Below, piece after piece: positions 54,169-64,000 of a stretch of 64,000 nucleotides of DNA; within the stretch, counting starts at the first letter, position 1; each line of letters starts with the position of its first letter. A model generated the notes under the pieces. The model was given only the letters and a program-made list of their open reading frames with translations, did not search any database and was not told the DNA's origin. Source of the stretch: an uncultured Acidobacteriota bacterium. GTDB taxonomy: Bacteria > Acidobacteriota > UBA6911. Location of the stretch: the NCBI GenBank assembly GCA_963809485.1, contig CAWEJX010000020.1, positions 960,001 to 1,024,000 of the forward strand, read 5' to 3'. A program made the position numbers and the translations under genes.

Positions 54169-54244
<76 letters not shown>

Positions 54245-54444
54245 TGAAAACAAAAGACTTACGGTTTTTCACTTCTCTCCTTTTTCTCCCAAAACAGCCC
54301 GTAGGGTGAAAAAACTCAGCCGTGCCGTAAATGCCTGCAAATAGAACCGCTTGCCGAGCAAGCCAGTTGCGTCCACTACGAGGCTTGACAGGCAGTCGGT
54401 GTTGCCGGATGCTGCAGATTCTCACTGCAATTCCGGAGGAGAAT

Positions 54445-55281
54445 GTGAAGGTACTATTGCACCCCTGGCAGTTATTGCTTTTGGTTCTCGCTGGCTGGGT
54501 CAATCGTCGGCGGCAGGATGTGATCGAATACCTTCTGGTTGAAAATCGTGTGTTGCGGCAGAAACTGGGGAAAAGACGAATCCTGCTGAATGAAGAACAG
54601 CGGCGCCGCCTTGCCGTCAAAGGCAAGATCCTCGGTCGGAAGATGATCGAGCAGGTCGCTGGGATTGTAACTCCGGAAGCGATTCTTCGCTGGCATCGTG
54701 AGTTGGTCGCACGACATTGGGATACCAGCAAGCGACGACAGAGGGCCGGACGGCCGGCGATTCCTCAGGAAACCGTGGATCTCATTCTGAAATTGGCAAA
54801 GGAAAATCCTCGCTGGGGCTACAAGCGCATCCAGGGCGCAGTCGCGAATCTCGGAAGCGTGATTTCGGATACGGCAGTTGCAAACATTCTGAGGGCCCCA
54901 TGCGATAGACCCGGCCCCGGATCGAAAGAGACAGGGCAGCTGGAAGGAATTCCTCAACACACACTGGGATATGCTTGCCTCGGTTGATTTCACAGCGATC
55001 GGGATTTGGACGAAGAAGGGATTGGTTACATACTATCTGCTGTTCTTCATGGAGATTGCAACCCGACGGATTCATTTTGCTGGTCTCACCACCAATCCAG
55101 ATGAAGCCTGGCTGCTTCAGGTTGCCAGGAATGTGACTGACGCCGATGACGGATTCCTTCGTGGCAATCGATACTTGCTGATGGACCGAGACACGAAATT
55201 CTCGGAAGCGTTCCGGGGCACGTTTGAGGATGTCGGAGTGAAGCCGCTCCGCCTGCCGGCACGATCCCCGAATTTGAGTGC
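54445..55281 (+). pseudogene. rve/integrase-core (DDE) transposase, 5' part; frameshifted and interrupted
   Basis: LLVENRVLR, VTPEAILRWHRELV, ENPRWGYKRIQG; an extra C in CCCC 54896-54899; then VDFTA, LLMDRDTKF, RSPNLS up to the insertion. Confidence 0.88.
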
Positions 55282-57363
55282 TTATGCTTCATACTGCACC
55301 TCATGCGTAATTTGGGTCGCTCTTTCTGCCTTTGATCGATAGCATCCCGGTTTTCTCTTGTGCTTAAGCGGCCTATTGTTTCCAGGACGTTCGATGAGAT
55401 AAGAATGGTCATTGTACCAGTGGGCGTGTAGATAACCTCCACGTTTCCACTTCTTGACCGTTCCGGGATTGATATCGAGTCTGGCTGCTGTCTCATTAAC
55501 TGTCATCATCCCAAGATCGCGGAGTCGTTGATATCGTGTTTTCATTGCATACTCGCGGCAAAGACGGTAGACCATTGCGTGATTAATGGACTTTCCCTCG
55601 CCTGAGCGATATCCGCGTTCGGTGAGAATCACGGAAATCTCCGAGTCCGTATGGTTGTCGAGCAGCCGGTCGATCTCGGCGAGCACTTCAGGACTGGTCT
55701 GCCGGATCTTCCATGCCGGAGGCGGAAGAGGCAGTGTCAGTATCCTGGTGGCTCCCCCTCGGAAGCGGACACTGGCGCTGATTTCTTTGTTCCTAATAAG
55801 AGTCACATCTTCGATCAAGAGCCGCAACATTCGCTTTCGATCGCGGTCCTCTGTCCGCTGATCTTGCCAGAGTTTGGGAAAATCACTTGCAAGAGTAAGA
55901 ACCTGCGTGCTTGTCTTTTCATCAAGGAGCTTCCGATCCCTTTCGCATTCCCGCTGATACTCTTGCTGTCGCTCATCGAGCACTCGGAGTTTCTCGTTCC
56001 ACTCAGCCTCAAGTGAGGCAGCTACAAGCCGGTTCTCTGGATCTACACGGAGAAAACGCCGCCGGGCAAGATCCGCCTCATACTGAGCTCGCTCGACGTG
56101 TTTTTTTCGCAGTGCGTCTGCTTCACTCAGACGTGTCTGCAATTCCTGCTGCACTGCCAGCGTCACTTCTAGAGCCATGGGACTCACAGCCTCAACCAGA
56201 AGAGCTCCTACAGCCTCGTCGATATTCGCTCCCGGGATATGCTGGCAAATCCTCTCTCCGCGTTCTATCCCTTCGCGCTGGCACACATAGTCAGGCTGAA
56301 GTCCTTGTCTCCTACCATGATAACGAACCGTCATACGCCGGCCGCATACTCCACAGATCACCAACCCCTGTAACAAAGCAGGACCTTCTCTTGGCGGGCT
56401 CTTGCGGCGGTCGGTGCCGTGGGCCGCCGAGTTTTCGGTCAGGCATTTCTGGTTCTGTTCGAATTCGTCCCAAGAAATGTAGCCCGGATGCGCATTGGGA
56501 ATAAACGCAATCCATTCCTCCCGCGGTAATTTCCTACTGCTAACATTAGAGCCATACTTGCGCTGTCGAGTACGCCCAAAGAAAAATGCTCCCGCAAAGC
56601 GTGGATTGTGCAGCAGCCATAAGGCGCGATGGAGTAAAAGGGGGCCCCACGCCAAGTCTCCCTTCTGATGATTATCGGCTCGTCGTGGAAAGAGCAGGCC
56701 CTTGTTTCGAAACGCTTTCACTGTTGCTGTTGCAGACCCCGTACGACGAAAAGTCCGGAAGAACATGCGGATGCTCTCCTGAACCTGCCGGTCGGGATCA
56801 ATCACGACTTTGCCTGTTGCATCGTAGATGAAACCAATGGGAAGTGGGCACTCTAGTTCACCTCGCCGTGCCTTATTCACGATACCGCCCAAAAGCCGAG
56901 CCCGAAGCATGTGCAGTTCGGCTTCACTCATCGTACCTTTGAGACCGAGCAGCAGGCGGTCATTAAAGTGCGCCGGATCGTAAATACCATCCTCGTCCAG
57001 TATGAGTGTATCGCTCAGTGCACACATTTCGAGCAGCCGATGCCAGTCGGCCGAATTTCGTGCAAGGCGAGAAACCTCTAAACCCATCACCAAGCCTGCA
57101 TGCCCTAACCCAACTTCGGTCACCAATTTTTGGAAACCCTCGCGGTCTGCAGCGGCTGCGCCTGATTGGCCCAGATCCGTATCCAGCACAATGATACGCT
57201 CCTGGGGCCATCCCAACGCAACTGCGCGCTGCTTCAAGGCATACTGGCGTTTTGTACTTTCAGTATTTTCCAAAACCTGTCGGAGCGTCGATTGCCGTAT
57301 GTACAAATAGGCATTCCGTTGAACGTGGATCGGCCGGATCTTCTGATTCCCCTCACTCGCCAT
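55282..57363 (-). CDS. Large serine recombinase (resolvase, recombinase, Zn-ribbon, coiled coil)
   Basis: AYLYIRQST, DLGQSG, EVSRLARN, LLQGLVICGVCGRRM...YVC...C; the stop codon abuts the core. Confidence 0.95.
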   Translation of the reverse strand: MASEGNQKIRPIHVQRNAYLYIRQSTLRQVLENTESTKRQYALKQRAVALGWPQERIIVLDTDLGQSGAAAADREGFQKLVTEVGLGHAGLVMGLEVSRLARNSADWHRLLEMCALSDTLILDEDGIYDPAHFNDRLLLGLKGTMSEAELHMLRARLLGGIVNKARRGELECPLPIGFIYDATGKVVIDPDRQVQESIRMFFRTFRRTGSATATVKAFRNKGLLFPRRADNHQKGDLAWGPLLLHRALWLLHNPRFAGAFFFGRTRQRKYGSNVSSRKLPREEWIAFIPNAHPGYISWDEFEQNQKCLTENSAAHGTDRRKSPPREGPALLQGLVICGVCGRRMTVRYHGRRQGLQPDYVCQREGIERGERICQHIPGANIDEAVGALLVEAVSPMALEVTLAVQQELQTRLSEADALRKKHVERAQYEADLARRRFLRVDPENRLVAASLEAEWNEKLRVLDERQQEYQRECERDRKLLDEKTSTQVLTLASDFPKLWQDQRTEDRDRKRMLRLLIEDVTLIRNKEISASVRFRGGATRILTLPLPPPAWKIRQTSPEVLAEIDRLLDNHTDSEISVILTERGYRSGEGKSINHAMVYRLCREYAMKTRYQRLRDLGMMTVNETAARLDINPGTVKKWKRGGYLHAHWYNDHSYLIERPGNNRPLKHKRKPGCYRSKAERATQITHEVQYEA

Positions 57364-57670
57364 AGCTCACCTCTGTGGATGCCGCATGGAAAACCATACT
57401 CGACAGTACCATTACGATGTCGCCCTGTAATCCCGCAGGAAGGAAGTCGTCAGCCATTTTGCTGTCGGCGCCTTCAGGGACAACCGGGCTCGCATAGGTC
57501 CACCACGCATCGATCCATGCCGCCAATCCTTGATACTTCAAGACGGCAAGTCCAAGTTCTCCTTGAGTGCAAGAACTTTGATCGATTGCCTGTTTGCGCA
57601 GTTTTTCGTATGCCGTTTTGATCCGCATCAGTGCATCAGGTCCCTGATCAACTTGCCTTCTGGCTTTCAT
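57353..57670 (-). CDS. Hypothetical protein of the recombinase element (y4bB-like)
   Basis: YEKLRKQA...GLAVLKYQGLAAW; overlaps both neighbours (translational coupling). Confidence 0.75.
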   Translation of the reverse strand: MKARRQVDQGPDALMRIKTAYEKLRKQAIDQSSCTQGELGLAVLKYQGLAAWIDAWWTYASPVVPEGADSKMADDFLPAGLQGDIVMVLSSMVFHAASTEVSYGE

Positions 57671-58137
57671 AGCTGTTTTTTTTCCCGCCGGCGCAGGGCG
57701 CGCTCAACGGTGCGACGGTGAACTTTAATGCCAAAGCGCTCGGTGACCAGGGAAATCAACTCCGAAACAGTTGGTGATTGGCTTGCAGCCCGGGCCGCCT
57801 CAATGTAATCGACGACTTCTTCGCTAAGCTTATGACCACTTCGGGGACCCCGTTTTTTGGGGATGAGCCCGGGAAGGCCATCTTGCCGCAGGATTGACTG
57901 AGCTTGGTAAAATGCTGGCCGTGAGAGGCCGAAGGCGGCAGCAGCGGCAGTCACCGACTTCCCCTCGGCTTCGACCCGCCGCAGCATCTCGTACTTGACC
58001 TGAACTACGTCACGTGCATTGAAGAATTCGCTTTCGAGGAAGAGTGAATCGGTTACCCGTTCAGGATGAGGATTCAGGGTTCCTTGCTGTTTCAGTGCTT
58101 TTATCTTTGGGTCGGCTGTGCGCAATTGTTTTTTCAT
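57667..58137 (-). CDS. Helix-turn-helix protein of the recombinase element (y4bC-like)
   Basis: GTLNPHPERV, QVKYEMLR, AAAAFGLSRPAFYQ, KRGPRSGHKL, VHRRTVERAL. Confidence 0.85.
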   Translation of the reverse strand: MKKQLRTADPKIKALKQQGTLNPHPERVTDSLFLESEFFNARDVVQVKYEMLRRVEAEGKSVTAAAAAFGLSRPAFYQAQSILRQDGLPGLIPKKRGPRSGHKLSEEVVDYIEAARAASQSPTVSELISLVTERFGIKVHRRTVERALRRREKKQL

Positions 58138-58285
58138 TGTAATAATATATACGCCTTATTCCTCTCCGCATGTCAAGGATAATCGTGTTGACATCAACCG
58201 TACGCTAGCCGTTATCAAGCATATCATGCGCATACCATCAATAATGTTTGCAGATGCGCACAACGGATATGCGGCGATATTACTC

Positions 58286-58639
58286 TTACACATGCGGCGT
58301 CTTTTCCTTTACAGATGTTGCGCGGACTCTTTTCTTGGGCATTTTGCTTTTACAGAACGTCACCAGCTCTGCGAGCTGAATGAGATCTTCCGTGCGGAAG
58401 CAGGCCCTGCCCGCTGCAATGGCTACGAACGGATCCGGCGCTGCCGCATCGGTCCATGCAGTTGGTATCGCTATAAGGCAATTCTCTTCGTTGTAGAAGT
58501 ACACTCTGGACTCACCCCAGGCTGGCCTACAAGCAACCAGCTCGAACCGGCGGTTATGAAGAGGATGGAAGGGATGCGTTACTGTGAAAAATCGTTGCGG
58601 TTCTGTCGAATACTTCGCAGTTGATGGCTTTTTCCAGTG
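58286..58639 (-). CDS. DUF5372 (Y4bD/Y4pK-like) protein, lacking a start codon in the integrated state
   Basis: The frame is open from the element end: HWKKPSTAKYSTEPQRFFTVTHPFHPL...WGESRVYF...IPTAWTD...DPF. The first in-frame start (GTG 58504) lies after the VTHPFHPL signature. Confidence 0.8.
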   Translation of the reverse strand, partial: HWKKPSTAKYSTEPQRFFTVTHPFHPLHNRRFELVACRPAWGESRVYFYNEENCLIAIPTAWTDAAAPDPFVAIAAGRACFRTEDLIQLAELVTFCKSKMPKKRVRATSVKEKTPHV

Positions 58640-58640
58640 C

Positions 58641-58887
58641 GCACATTGAGCGGTTCATGCGAAGCCTGAAGGAGGAGTGCCTGGAGCGCATGATCTTCTT
58701 CGGAGAGAAATCGCTCCATGCCGCCACAGTAAGCTATGTGGATCATTTTCTTACGGAGCGCAACCATCAGGGGGTGGGCAACCGGCTGCTGATTCCTGGG
58801 AGGGAAGTCGGCGAGAGGGCCGGTGAGGTCGTGTGCCGGCAACGGCTCGGTGGACTGCTGCGTTACTATTTCCGCGAAGCTGCATGA
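58641..58887 (+). pseudogene. rve transposase, 3' part
   Basis: HIERFMRSLKEECL...ERNHQGVGN...RLGGLLRYYFREAA. Confidence 0.88.
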
Positions 58888-59164: not shown

Positions 59165-59374
59165 CTACAGGCTGTTAAGGAAGCCCAATAGCTGATCACC
59201 TGGTTGATAACGGGTTGCCTTGCCATTGGGCGGTGCTGTTTTGGCGAGAGCTTGCTCCTTCATCGCCAACGTCGCCTCCAGATAGATCTGGGTCGTCTCA
59301 ACTGACTCATGGCCCAACCACAATGCAATCACGGAACGATCGACGCCCGCCTGTAGAAGGTCCATGGCCATTGT
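59165..59374 (-). pseudogene. Outer RIT third recombinase, 3' fragment
   Basis: TMAMDLLQAGVDRSVIALWLGHESVETTQIY continues HRLRH from 62830. Confidence 0.9.
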
Positions 59375-59554: not shown

Positions 59555-60793
59555 ATGAACCAACTGTTGGAAGACCTCAGAATATCTGCCCGGGTAGAGG
59601 AAGGCCCCCTCGGACCGTATATCGGCTCCTATGCTGCACAGCTGCTTTCGGAGGGGTATGCAAGACACTCAAGCTGCGTGAAGATCCGGCTCGTTGGTGC
59701 GTTTAGCCGATGGCTGAGTCGCAAGCACATAGCTGCCAATAAGCTGGTAGATCAGCACCCAGTCGATTTTTTACGCTATCGCAATCGATGCGGCCATCGC
59801 CTTGGTCTAGGTGATCCAGCGACCATAATGCGCGTGTTGAAGTTGCTTCGCGAGCAAGACGTGATCGTGCAGGGACCGGCCCAGGCGCCAACAACGCCGA
59901 GCGAGCGTCTGGTGGAAGAGTACGATATTTATTTGCAGAGGGAGCGAGTGCTCTCTCTGGCAACACGGATCAATTATCGGCCCTTTATTCAGAAGTTTCT
60001 GACCGTTCGGTTTGGGAAAGGTCCGGCCAAACTCTCTCGCCTGCGTACCACAGACATCATTGGATTTGTACGGTGTCATGCCCGACAAATACACAGCAAA
60101 CGCGTTCAGCTGATGACCACCGCGCTTCGCTCTTTCCTGCGATTTGCCCGTTATCGTGGCGACATCACCCTTGATCTGGCCGCCTGTGTCCCCGCAGTGG
60201 CGAGTTGGTCCTTATCCACGCTACCGCGAGCTCTTCCCCCGGCACATGTAAAGCTGGTTTTGGAACACTGCAACAGACAAACAGCCGTAGGCCGCCGCGA
60301 CTACGCAATCCTGTTGTTACTCGCCCGCCTTGGCCTGCGAAGCGGAGAAGTTGCCGGTCTCGGTTTGGAGGACATTGATTGGAAGAACGGGTTATTCTCG
60401 GTTGTGGGCAAAGGGGGCTCCTCGTCTCCGTTACCTCTTCCTGCAGATGTAGGCAACGCAATCGCTGCCTACCTGAAGGACGGCCGGCCGCGACTATCCG
60501 GCAACCGGCGAGTATTTCTCCGGGCCAGAGCACCGATGGTCGGGTTCACGAGTATGGCGGTGCGCGATGTCGTCAAACGCGCTCTTGCCCGAGCCGGAAT
60601 TGATTCACCGCGAAAAGGTGCGCACCAGTTTCGTCACGCGCTGGCTACAGGCATGCTGAACCGAGGAGCCTCTTTGAGCGAGATCGGAGAACTCCTGCGG
60701 CACCAAAACCCGGATACAACCAGAATCTATGCGAAAGTCGATCTGGCTTCGCTGCGTACTGTAGCAATGCCATGGCCAGGAGGTGGGCGATGA
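59555..60793 (+). CDS. RIT tyrosine recombinase A
   Basis: RDYAILLLLARLGLRSGEV, GKG, AHQFRH, LRHQ...TRIY. Confidence 0.93.
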   Translation: MNQLLEDLRISARVEEGPLGPYIGSYAAQLLSEGYARHSSCVKIRLVGAFSRWLSRKHIAANKLVDQHPVDFLRYRNRCGHRLGLGDPATIMRVLKLLREQDVIVQGPAQAPTTPSERLVEEYDIYLQRERVLSLATRINYRPFIQKFLTVRFGKGPAKLSRLRTTDIIGFVRCHARQIHSKRVQLMTTALRSFLRFARYRGDITLDLAACVPAVASWSLSTLPRALPPAHVKLVLEHCNRQTAVGRRDYAILLLLARLGLRSGEVAGLGLEDIDWKNGLFSVVGKGGSSSPLPLPADVGNAIAAYLKDGRPRLSGNRRVFLRARAPMVGFTSMAVRDVVKRALARAGIDSPRKGAHQFRHALATGMLNRGASLSEIGELLRHQNPDTTRIYAKVDLASLRTVAMPWPGGGR

Positions 60794-61710
60794 ACAGCCT
60801 CCGCAAAGCGGTCAAGGACTACATTGAGATGCGCCGCGCCTTAGGATACAAGATGAGGAAGGCGAGAGTTCTATTGCCGCAGTTTATCAACTTCTTGCAC
60901 CAGCAAGGTTCATCGGTTATCACGATCCCGCTGGCCCTTCAATGGGCACAAAGCAACAGAGGGGTGCAACCTACCGAGTGGGCCCAGCGATTGACCACCG
61001 TCCGTTGTTTTGCTCGTCACTGGAGTGCCACCGACCCTCGAACTCAAATTCCGCCATGGGGCTTACTGCCGCATCGCCCCAAGCGAGCACGACCGTACTT
61101 GTATAGCGACGAAGAAGTTCAGCAACTCCTGCAATCCGCACGTCGGTTAGGTGGTTTGCGCGGTCTGACCTACTACTGTTTGTTCGGATTGTTATGCGTC
61201 GCTGGCCTGAGAATCAGCGAGGCGTTGAACCTGCGATCGGTGGATGTCGATTTGGTAACCGGCGTTCTGACCGTCCGTGGAGCGAAGTTCGGCAAGTCCC
61301 GATTGGTGCCGATTCATGCCACGACACAAAAGGTTCTCTCTGAGTACGTGAAGTATCGTGACCGTACTTTTGCTCGAGAACTCTCCTTTTTCTTTGTCTC
61401 TAAACGTGGCAATCGCCTTGATGGAGGCGAAGTACGGCGTACCTTTTACGCCCTGTCACGCGAAATCGGGCTGCGTGGCCCGACCGCCAGTCACGGACCA
61501 CGCTTGCACGACTTCCGTCATCGACTGGCTGTCCGAACCCTGGTGCAGTGGTACCGCTGGGGACAAGATGTCGAGCGACGCCTACCCGTATTGTCGACTT
61601 ACCTCGGTCATGTTCACGTCAGCGATACGTACTGGTATCTCACCGCTTGCCCCGAACTAATGGGAATGGCGGTGAAGCGCCTGGAAAAGCACTGGGAGGG
61701 GCAATCATGA
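60790..61710 (+). CDS. RIT tyrosine recombinase B
   Basis: GLRISEAL, KFGKSRLVP, LHDFRH, LSTYLGH...TYWY; ATGA overlap. Confidence 0.93.
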   Translation: MNSLRKAVKDYIEMRRALGYKMRKARVLLPQFINFLHQQGSSVITIPLALQWAQSNRGVQPTEWAQRLTTVRCFARHWSATDPRTQIPPWGLLPHRPKRARPYLYSDEEVQQLLQSARRLGGLRGLTYYCLFGLLCVAGLRISEALNLRSVDVDLVTGVLTVRGAKFGKSRLVPIHATTQKVLSEYVKYRDRTFARELSFFFVSKRGNRLDGGEVRRTFYALSREIGLRGPTASHGPRLHDFRHRLAVRTLVQWYRWGQDVERRLPVLSTYLGHVHVSDTYWYLTACPELMGMAVKRLEKHWEGQS

Positions 61711-62702
61711 AGACCGCCACCTTCTCTGCATTGCTGGAAAGCTTTTTCAGTGAGCGCCTGATCCGTCAGCGCCAGGTGAGCCCTCATACCATCAGTTCCT
61801 ATCGCGATACATTCCGGCTGCTTCTTCAGTTCGCGCAGCGGAGTCTGCACAAGCCGCCATCCCGTTTCGCACTTGAGGACATCGATGCCCCAATGGTTAG
61901 CGCGTTCCTCAATGACATGGAGAACAGTCGCAAGATCACTGCGCGCAGTCGAAATCTTCGTTTGACCGCTATTCGCTCTTTCTTTAACTATACGGCCTAC
62001 GAGGAACCTGCTCACGCACAGCAGATCCAGCGTATCCTGGCAATTCCCGGCAAGAGATACTCCCGAACTTTGGTTCAGTTTCTGAACCGGCCCGAGATTG
62101 ACGCGCTCCTGGCGGCCCCAGATCAACGAACCTGGCTCGGTCGTCGCGATCACGCACTACTGCTTGTGGCGGTTCAGACCGGGTTGCGCTTGTCCGAGCT
62201 GACAGGACTGCAAACTCAAGACGTGCATTTGGCAACAGGAGCCCACGTTCGCTGTTCGGGCAAAGGCCGAAAAGAGCGCTGCACTCCGTTGACCAAGCAC
62301 ACAGTAGCAGCCTTGAAAGCTTGGTTATATGAATCGGCCAAAGGTGCTGCCGAGTGGCTGTTTCCCAGTGCACGCGGCGGTCGGCTGAGTGCCGACGCCG
62401 TGCAGGATTTGTTGGCAAAACACGTGGCAGTCGCGGCCCGGGACTGTCCCTCATTGCGGAAAAAGCGGGTGACCCCGCATGTGCTTAGACACGCCGCCGC
62501 AATGGAATTGCTTCAGTCTGGTGTGGATCGTTCAGTCATTGCCCTCTGGCTGGGACATGAATCTATCGAAACCACCCAAATTTATATAAACGCAGATCTG
62601 GCTCTCAAGGAAAAGGCCCTGGCTAAGACGACGCCTGCCAGCAGTAATCAACGACGTTTTCGGGCCAAAGACTCATTGCTGGAATTTCTCAAAGCCTTGT
62701 GA
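61707..62702 (+). CDS. RIT tyrosine recombinase C
   Basis: SPHTISSYRDTFRLLL, TGLRLSEL, GKGRKER, TPHVLRH, WLGHE...TQIY; ATGA overlap. Confidence 0.93.
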   Translation: MKTATFSALLESFFSERLIRQRQVSPHTISSYRDTFRLLLQFAQRSLHKPPSRFALEDIDAPMVSAFLNDMENSRKITARSRNLRLTAIRSFFNYTAYEEPAHAQQIQRILAIPGKRYSRTLVQFLNRPEIDALLAAPDQRTWLGRRDHALLLVAVQTGLRLSELTGLQTQDVHLATGAHVRCSGKGRKERCTPLTKHTVAALKAWLYESAKGAAEWLFPSARGGRLSADAVQDLLAKHVAVAARDCPSLRKKRVTPHVLRHAAAMELLQSGVDRSVIALWLGHESIETTQIYINADLALKEKALAKTTPASSNQRRFRAKDSLLEFLKAL

Positions 62703-62829
62703 ACTTCAATAACACTATGCGGGACTATGCCGGATGATGGTCAGGGACACGAAGGACCGGAGTCTTTATCAAAGCGGGTTTTCGAATCATCGGTCTCGCT
62801 TTACCCGGCATAGTCCGGAACCCGGCATA

Positions 62830-63618
62830 GTGTCTCAAACGGTGAACGGTGACGCGTTTGTTCTTCAACGACGGGCACTTCCTGGAGGCCATCATACGGT
62901 GTTTTTTCAGCAGGTACTGCACGCCATGGACGCTGAGGCGTTTTCCCATTGCGCTGGGAAACAGCACGTTACCTGCACCGCGTTGCGGCTCACGGAGCCA
63001 GGCCTTCAATATGGCGAGCGTGGATCGGGCAATAGGTGTGCACCGTTCTTTGCGGCCCTTGCCGATTACGCGTACGTGGGCCCCTGCGCCAAGGATAAGA
63101 TCTTCGCGTGTGAGGCCGGTCATCTCCGACAGGCGCAGACCCGTCTGTACGGCAACCAGAAGAAAGGCGTGATCGCGCCGGCCAGACCAGGTGCGCAGAT
63201 CCGGAGCGGCCAGCAAGGCATCGACTTCCGCACGTGTGAGGAACTGGACCAAGGTGCGCGTAAAACGTTTACTGGGAATGGCGAGCACCCGCTGGATCTG
63301 TGCAGAGTGAGCTGGTGCCTCAAACGCTGCATACCGAAAGAAGGAATGAAGCGCGGTGAGCCGTAGATTCCGGCTGCGAATGCTCAAGCCGTGATGTTTC
63401 TCGATGTCATCAAGAAACATCACAATTAAAGGGGCCTCGATCTCCTCGAAGTTTAGACGCGATGGTGGTTTGTGTATCCGCTGCTGGGCGAACTTCAGAA
63501 ACTGGCGGAAGGTATCGCGGTAGGAGCTGATGGTGTGGGGGCTCGCCTGGCGCTGCTGCATCAGGCGCTGTGTGAAGAAGCGTTCCAACAGCGGAGCGAG
63601 GTTAGTGCTGGTCGTCAT
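62830..63618 (-). pseudogene. Outer RIT third recombinase, 5' part, interrupted at HRLRH
   Basis: Homologous to 61707-62702; after HRLRH the frame runs into the inner element IR. Confidence 0.9.
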
Positions 63619-64000
63619 GGCTGATGATCCTCCCAACGGTGCTCGAGCCGACGCATCGCCTCGCGCATCAGCTCCGGTGTGCCGCTCAAATACCACTGCG
63701 TATCAGCCACGTGCACATGGCCGAGGAAAGCGGACAAGAGAGGTAGTTTTCGCTCGGGGTCCTGATTGGATCGATACCAGTGCACGAGTGTGCGGGTCGC
63801 GAATCGATGCCTGAAGTCGTGCAGACGAGGGCCATGACTGTCGGATGGGCCGCGCAGACCGATCTGCCGGGACAGCGCATAAAACGTTCGATGAATGTCT
63901 CCGCTATCCAACCGATTGCCCCAGCTTGAGACGAACAAGTAGGAGGACACCGGCCGCTGCGCCCAATGGCGTTTGCGTCTGCCGATGTAGTCTGCGAGCA
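63615..64000 (-). CDS. Outer RIT second recombinase, 3' part (runs off the window edge)
   Basis: HGPRLHDFRHRFA, LSAFLGHVHVADTQWY; homologous to 60790-61710. Confidence 0.9.
   Translation of the reverse strand, partial: LADYIGRRKRHWAQRPVSSYLFVSSWGNRLDSGDIHRTFYALSRQIGLRGPSDSHGPRLHDFRHRFATRTLVHWYRSNQDPERKLPLLSAFLGHVHVADTQWYLSGTPELMREAMRRLEHRWEDHQP

Follow-up and report, generated by a model that had tools for sequence, protein, structure and literature searches.

Elements that move through a circular form can carry signals that exist only in that form. In the clostridial elements Tn4451 and Tn4453, a large serine recombinase (TnpX) works through a circular intermediate, and an expression signal is found in the circle only. 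The element described here also has a large serine recombinase, and would share the circle and the circle-only signal; it lies at positions 55277-58640 of a 64,000-nucleotide (nt) stretch of DNA from an uncultured Acidobacteriota bacterium (the window). In Tn4451, however, the joint of the circle is a promoter for the recombinase gene, whereas here the joint would bring the body of an accessory gene of the DUF5372 family together with five codons and a ribosome-binding site, and the recombinase gene is intact in both states. The circle-specific signal of Tn4451 is reportedly the subject of Lyras and Rood (2000), cited in PMC13023037. Insertion sequences that form circles, among them IS911, IS30 and IS2, have junction promoters that are also circle-specific signals built from two ends; they are transcriptional, belong to elements with DDE transposases and are thought to drive rapid re-integration.

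Two further systems place the attachment site within a gene of the element itself. With SSV-type archaeal integrases, as here, that gene is whole only in the circle. The SSV-type gene is a tyrosine integrase, split in its body, and a review describes self-disrupting recombinases as known only in archaea (PMC8371274). A split integrase leaves excision blocked, whereas the element here splits an accessory gene after codon 5. Its recombinase open reading frame (ORF) ends at 55282, within the element and 1-2 nt before the core, unlike in the suicidal integration of the SSV type. In the integration-dependent immunity of mycobacteriophage BPs and relatives, the analogy drawn by the initial annotation of this locus, attP lies within a regulatory gene, that of the repressor, and integration alters the product; the 3′ end is exchanged, a degradation tag is removed and the integrated form is the active one (PMC4557955). 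In contrast, the element here loses the 5′ end and the initiation signals, and its integrated form should be silent.

We consider it likely that DUF5372 is made only in the circle, where it would close a translationally coupled operon. Own-gene attachment sites are already known; here, a bacterial serine-recombinase element keeps the body of an accessory gene at one end and its ribosome-binding site, with the first five codons, at the other. The element belongs to a widespread, apparently undescribed family of about 3.3 kb, moved by a large serine recombinase and with the attachment site within its own DUF5372 gene. No description of DUF5372, of the element family or of a circle-only start mechanism was found in open-access papers and bioRxiv.

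The element and its ends

The element of 3.36 kb (3359 bp plus one copy of a 5-bp core) has its four genes on the minus strand, in the order DUF5372, helix-turn-helix (HTH) protein, small protein and large serine recombinase. It sits in the transposase gene of a host insertion sequence (IS), so that a small mobile element is nested inside a gene of another mobile element. The features of the locus are as follows (aa, amino acids).

55277..58640, minus strand: whole element; contigs of runs X1 and X3 join 55276 to 58636, and a second genomic copy exists
55277..55281, no strand: core AGTGC at the recombinase end, from the sequence and empty-site contigs; putative crossover AG (plus strand) at 55277-55278, CT on the gene strand
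58636..58640, no strand: core AGTGC at the DUF5372 end, from the sequence, empty-site contigs and dinucleotide covariation; crossover dinucleotide at 58636-58637
55290..55302, minus strand: Shine-Dalgarno-like GAGGTG, 4 nt and ATG (55292-55290); start of the junction reading frame
58614..58621, minus strand: left inverted-repeat arm ACTGCGAA (gene strand; encodes ..T-A-K..), 14 nt from the crossover and mirroring GGTGCAGT
58286..58639, minus strand: DUF5372 frame without a start, 117 codons and stop; Pfam PF17342, THPFHP motif from 58579
58655..58657, minus strand: TGA of the DUF5372 frame, located in the flank six codons outside the element, from reading the frame
58138..58285, minus strand: intergenic stretch of 148 nt from the DUF5372 stop to the HTH start; presumed operon promoter, by position only
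57667..58137, minus strand: HTH protein, 156 aa; Pfam HTH_28, HTH_23 and HTH_32, like the N-terminal DNA-binding part of IS481/IS630 transposases
57353..57670, minus strand: small protein, 105 aa ("y4bB-like" in the initial annotation); shares 11 nt with the recombinase start and 4 nt with the HTH stop
55282..57363, minus strand: large serine recombinase, 693 aa; Pfam Resolvase 2.1e-18, Recombinase 1.5e-12, Zn_ribbon_recom 2.7e-9
54331..55276, plus strand: host IS transposase gene, 5′ part; HTH_32 and rve, in two frames
58641..58887, plus strand: host transposase gene, 3′ part; rve_3, contains AHIERFMRSLKEE

The DUF5372 frame (58639 to 58286) matches PF17342 with an E value of 5.4e-26 and 90.9 bits, against a cut-off of 25, over residues 20-93 of 117. 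It is open from the TGA at 58657-58655, outside the element, through to its TAA at 58288-58286. In this frame no ATG, GTG or TTG lies upstream of THPFHP in the window, the preceding Val codon being GTA; the first canonical in-frame start is a GTG at 58504, which would give a 72-aa ORF that has lost the motif. Gene callers give such 72-aa DUF5372 fragments in the closest relatives of the window gene. At the opposite end of the element, GAGGTGCAGT (55302-55293) directly precedes an ATG at 55292-55290, which the last codons of the recombinase (ORF 57363 to 55282) overlap by 11 nt. The boundary between the small protein and the recombinase (57353-57363) has the identical GAGGTG-N4-ATG layout and the identical 11-nt overlap. 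When the ends of the element are joined through the core, the ATG is in frame with DUF5372 and opens a protein of 4 + 117 = 121 aa. The initial annotation had described the frame open to 58639 and startless before its motif with a TGA six codons into the flank, the ATG with a ribosome-binding site overlapping the recombinase stop, the matching layout at the recombinase start and the in-frame 121-aa product; re-reading the window bore out each of these.

The attachment site lies between codons 5 and 6 of DUF5372, with the initiation signals at the recombinase end. It consists of 8-bp inverted arms, GGTGCAGT and ACTGCNCC, placed 14 bp to each side of a 2-bp crossover, and so appears to show the large-serine-recombinase hallmark of a 2-bp crossover with imperfect inverted arms. 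The right arm (55300-55293) is within the start-signal region: the start codon directly follows it, and a GA before it completes GAGGTG-N4-ATG.

Metagenome contigs show the empty target, and the ends of the element are therefore exact. In the two public metagenome runs X1 and X3, a contig of 1127 nt (X1) and one of 297 nt (X3, with 2 other letters) both join 55276 to 58636, with 5 letters ambiguous, and carry an uninterrupted host gene. Run X3 also contains element pieces at full identity. Joining the flanks gives ..SPNL/SAHIERF.. (the slash marks the join), an rve-type transposase to which the element is antisense. A second copy in the same genome (C7:636292-639655) differs at 2 of 3364 bases (99.94% identical). 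The flanks of the two copies are 97.3% and 98.8% identical, with the host IS flanks differing by about 2.2%; near-identical elements in diverged flanks fit recent movement into two diverged copies of one insertion sequence. The genome retains no empty copy of the host IS. Elsewhere in it, a 155-codon open frame contains a third, weak DUF5372-like match (C8:595978-596127; 23.7 bits, under the cut-off).

In one complete genome (G279), eight identical copies of one type of element and three of another stand in different flanks, and these copies share only TT at each end. In transposons of the Tn4451/Tn5397 type, excision as a circle restores the donor site; for the element here, precise empty sites were seen in runs X1 and X3. 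The circle junction itself is absent from the assemblies: the right-end motif stood at most 110 nt upstream of THPFHP in junction geometry in 0 of 211 loci, no overlapping ends occurred among contigs of 3-4.6 kb, and no back-joint was found in the contigs of four runs. Contigs drop rare forms, so this absence is uninformative either way.

The reading frame across the joined ends of relatives

Relatives were drawn from genomes of the same phylum, from 80 prokaryote loci (one genome per species; 80 of 504 confirmed relatives) and from 80 metagenome loci (80 of 535), together with the window. As named in the records, they span many bacterial phyla and one archaeal metagenome-assembled genome (MAG), and the gene order DUF5372, HTH, (small protein), recombinase is kept across them. 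The operon order that the initial annotation assigned to the circle, HTH, y4bB-like small protein, recombinase and DUF5372, follows from it. There are 152 non-identical left ends (the DUF5372 side).

When the ends were joined in silico, a stop-free frame ran from an ATG, GTG or TTG into DUF5372 in 59 of 60 non-identical elements; these sixty are relatives and not independent trials, forming 42 clusters at 70% and 31 at 60% DUF5372 identity. Counted from the start, the Thr codon of THPFHP is 24 codons away in 52 elements, 23 in five, 25 in one and 26 in one. All of these distances are in frame, and length changes between the start and the Thr codon therefore come as whole codons. The sole miss (L150) is an artefact of the matching rule: its left crossover dinucleotide differs by one base, and with the standard geometry this element too is in frame. 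It should be said that the rule for the left crossover tried whole-codon offsets first, which biases toward in-frame results the eight elements unmatched at offset 0; the standard crossover position was matched in the other 52 of 60. The initial annotation took the layout to argue against coincidence. The frame across the junctions of homologues is not random, and the geometry, with the end checks and frame controls given below, recurs in them.

At the right end, GAGGTGCAGT was found with at most one mismatch in 66 non-identical elements. The triplet that follows is ATG in 42, GTG in 19 and TTG in one, and the remaining four have a TTG one codon further on, in frame. The two ends also covary: in 55 of 60 elements, the same dinucleotide stands at positions +14 to +15 from the start and 58 nt ahead of the Thr codon (TT/TT in 49, AA/AA in four, AC/AC in one and CT/CT in one, the element of the window). 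Four of the five mismatches have an N-terminal region one or two codons longer or shorter, and the fifth is the one-base case of L150.

Could the start signal be a by-product of other sequence that happens to lie there? In the junction consensus, neither the GA that completes GAGG nor the ATG itself has a counterpart at the left arm, and the inverted repeat therefore does not account for them. Nor does the recombinase coding sequence. Its stop lies between -17 and +10 nt from the junction start in 54 of 60 elements, and relative to the motif it stands at +8 in 20, +1 in 15, -11 in nine and -4 in five. Since its frame and position vary, the motif is not conserved as recombinase sequence. In L041-L043 of G279 and in five or six of the 60 relatives, the recombinase frame reaches the element end without a stop; its C terminus is then set by the flank in the integrated form and by the left end in the circle.

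The host gene offers a check on the ends that makes no use of the DUF5372 reading frame. Of the 54 non-identical loci for which both flanks were present, 50 regain an open frame on the opposite strand when the flanks are joined, the crossover falling on a codon boundary. One coordinate difference fixes both the target and the junction frame, and the junction frame is thereby confirmed independently. The four failures are a target one base out of frame (L050), the A+T-rich archaeal MAG (L061) and two loci with short flanks (L141 and L149). A spanning-ORF test with shifts of -1, 0 and +1 was dropped as too noisy in G+C-rich flanks and was replaced by a frame-by-frame view and count.

The same geometry is found in copies on the Sinorhizobium symbiotic plasmid pNGR234a and other rhizobial plasmids, along with the same gene order. 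Of the 80 plasmid records with a DUF5372 match, 51 are from Sinorhizobium. In the pNGR234a copy, the recombinase end has GTG, 11 nt and TT, and another TT stands 58 nt ahead of the Thr codon; its recombinase is frameshifted and appears as three tblastn pieces. Its genes are presumably those once named y4bA-D, and among open-access papers and bioRxiv no relevant paper was found for y4bA, y4pH, y4bD or y4pK. Elsewhere among the relatives, one viral contig carries a copy, and two DUF5372 genes without neighbours (L075 and L126) are copies cut by other insertion sequences. Locus L061, on a contig binned to the archaeon Candidatus Argoarchaeum, carries AC as the crossover dinucleotide at either end, and no transposase target could be recognised there.

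Where translation of DUF5372 may begin

That leaves the question of whether DUF5372 might be translated from the integrated copy after all, from an internal or non-canonical start near THPFHP, with the distant Shine-Dalgarno sequence and ATG a by-product of the attachment site. We regard this as rather unlikely. The 19 element codons before the Thr codon hold no in-frame stop in any of 145 left ends, whereas the other two frames are interrupted in 100 and 97 of 145. This openness ends exactly at the element end: three loci in which a stop directly adjoins the crossover have the shortest open stretch, of exactly 19 codons, and within the 19 flank codons beyond the end the DUF5372 frame meets a stop in 64 of 133. 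Insertions and deletions between arm and motif come in whole codons only; of 137 non-identical left ends, 108 have the left arm 42 nt ahead of the Thr codon, 15 have it at 39 nt and one at 45 nt. At residues -3 to -1 relative to the Thr codon, conservation follows the pattern of coding sequence, so that translation begins further upstream.

Nor do the left ends offer a conserved start of their own, a finding that the initial annotation had named as one that would count against it. In 75 of 148, the 19 element-encoded codons contain no ATG, GTG or TTG; in 25 of 148 the sole candidate is a GTG that is the Val codon before THPFHP; and 5 of 148 have an ATG in frame, either 4 or 6 codons ahead of the Thr codon. 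Directly before THPFHP, Ile is encoded in 81 of 152. Among the Val codons at this position, GTG accounts for 33 of 70 (0.47), against 0.43 in the gene body, so that GTG is not enriched.

Several observations nevertheless weigh against a start confined to the circle. Among database proteins, 31 of 191 begin with M or V right before THPFHP and several more 3-4 residues before it, so that some clades probably have their own start. RefSeq also places starts within the element, at an ATA five codons before the Thr codon in pNGR234a (L209 4540) and at a GTG three codons before it on a Streptomyces plasmid (L210 4549). The 19 N-terminal residues are poorly conserved, residues 1-10 are modelled with a pLDDT (predicted local distance difference test) score of 65, and no clear codon-position periodicity was seen from -19 to -4, a region that we do not use as support. 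The conservation of S-T-A-P can be explained by the recombinase-binding arm with which it coincides, GGTGCAGT likewise being a predicted recombinase-binding arm, and a protein-binding site, too, would tolerate A-to-G variation where the start triplet begins. It is worth noting that start annotation of DUF5372 is unreliable in general, with ATA, GTG, internal codons and flank positions all in use.

The flank can also supply a start. An in-frame ATG lies two codons before the element end in L086, L104 and L129, that is, 21 codons before the Thr codon, as it also does in L135 and L156, and in targets of the IS91 type the flank has one eight codons outside the element; the switch would be leaky in such copies. 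One can therefore envision DUF5372 being made in both states, from the junction start in the circle and from chance flank starts when integrated, its synthesis being modulated and not switched. We find this very unlikely. In the window, no start follows the TGA six codons outside the element; nearly half of the flanks have a stop within 19 codons, as counted above; and no promoter or ribosome-binding site is known in the flank, which is antisense to a transposase gene.

The flank ATG of IS91-type targets also yields seemingly conserved N termini of 29-30 residues before THPFHP in database proteins (P0008, P0014, P0016, P0017, P0021, P0023 and P0127; loci L129-L137). These were considered as junction-derived sequence or as contiguous recombinase-DUF5372 genes and were rejected, the metagenome loci showing them to be flank sequence. 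The residues are the antisense of the zinc-finger region of the target gene, which we take to be IS91-like, and this region supplies the in-frame ATG.

Finally, the startless integrated copy, together with the shortening of the gene to 72 aa by gene callers in the closest relatives, could suggest a decaying remnant whose start has been lost and which has no present function. This is extremely improbable: the frame is intact in all 145 non-identical copies across many phyla, with invariant residues and a confidently predicted fold, and DUF5372 is carried by identical multi-copy elements that are evidently active. Synthesis of DUF5372 in the circle only is thus our preferred reading. The initial annotation had proposed that recombination switches the gene on and integration switches it off. 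Geometry and frame fit support such a switch; its universality does not stand, as some relatives have a start of their own or one supplied by the flank.

Host targets, possible function and meaning

Elements of the family are always antisense to the transposase genes in which they insert (loci L041-L208 and the window). The crossover codon encodes Lys or Asn in 48 of 54 loci, and a Glu follows four residues after it in the repaired host frame in 45 of 54. Contexts such as ..PQA/KGRVER.., ..GNE/KGRVERAIRY.., ..DAYD/NAxAESF.. and ..FD/NSQAERDIR.. look like the catalytic-Glu region as it is typically found in various kinds of DDE transposase. Elements with an AA crossover insert in ..LLA/FSCK.R.FCP.., a zinc-finger region that is presumably typical of IS91-like transposases. 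The DNA consensus of the target is weak (AA-N-GG-N4-T-N-GAR-CG). It looks as if the element parasitises insertion sequences, with excision restoring the host gene.

The recombinase is of the large serine type: a resolvase domain (PF00239, residues 18-169) is followed by PF07508 (194-311) and a PF13408 zinc ribbon (330-386). Its best NCBIfam match, XisF, is under its cut-off. It departs from the IS607-type order, a small protein with an N-terminal DNA-binding domain, in its length of 693 aa and in having its catalytic domain first. The 105-aa small protein gave no family match in Pfam and NCBIfam searches, and its tblastn relatives occupy the same position in G279. The HTH protein matches the NCBIfam IS481 and IS630 models at model positions 2-107 only, far under their cut-offs. 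It resembles the genes into which the element inserts, and binding of insertion-sequence DNA by it is speculation. A consensus scan of 58138..58285 found no sigma-70-like site.

We imagine the following cycle. In the integrated state, a promoter upstream of the HTH gene would drive the HTH protein, the small protein and the recombinase, and DUF5372 would have no initiation site. The recombinase would excise the circle, repairing the host transposase gene. In the circle, the transcript and its ribosomes would cross the junction, and DUF5372 would become the fourth, coupled gene. Its 121-aa product may then act on the recombinase or its sites in the circle only, by analogy with the junction promoters of Tn4451 and of circle-forming insertion sequences most likely favouring re-integration, although this is the least certain part.

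We infer that DUF5372 is an accessory factor of the recombinase. A product made after excision cannot start excision, which favours a role in the circle, either promoting or directing re-integration or blocking the reverse reaction; by the same reasoning, synthesis after excision argues against a classical recombination directionality factor. The AlphaFold2 model of DUF5372 (pLDDT 88) has a small barrel of five strands followed by two helices, and the protein is predicted to combine a basic, disordered N terminus with an SH3-like barrel and the two helices. H22, H25 and P26 are invariant. Foldseek against the PDB gave no DUF5372 match at E ≤ 0.001, the best being KOW/SH3-like barrels (eS4, NdhS and PsaE) that provide no functional lead, and an Atlas search returned DUF5372 clusters only. 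A tentative possibility is that DUF5372, formed in the circle alone, serves as an integration licence, redirecting the recombinase from the ends of its own element to the degenerate target that encodes the catalytic K/N-G-x-V/I-E-R motif of DDE transposases. If so, the family would be a dedicated insertion-sequence parasite, with direction set by the physical state of the DNA and not by a separately regulated factor.

The surroundings of the element in the window are rich in mobile DNA. Just beyond the host IS lie three tandem tyrosine-recombinase genes with overlapping ends (59555-62702, plus strand; 412, 312 and about 384 aa), a layout that we take to resemble "recombinase in trio" elements. 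A fourth tyrosine recombinase (62725-63696) and a short integrase-like fragment (59165-59371) are on the minus strand. A tRNA-Thr gene (CGT; 54169-54244, plus strand) stands directly upstream of the host insertion sequence, so that mobile elements are piled up beside a tRNA gene.

If our reading of DUF5372 is correct, this would be a purely topological gene switch in bacteria, in which a protein is encoded or not according to whether the DNA is circular or linear. It would account for the inconsistent annotation of DUF5372 genes and would provide a handle on how direction is controlled in transposase-like serine recombinases that have no classical directionality factor. Genome engineers, too, may be interested in compact serine recombinases whose target is loose and motif-like and which come with a small accessory protein. 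The analysis also defines the ends, core and target of a widespread family of elements that inactivates several families of insertion sequences and would restore them on excision.

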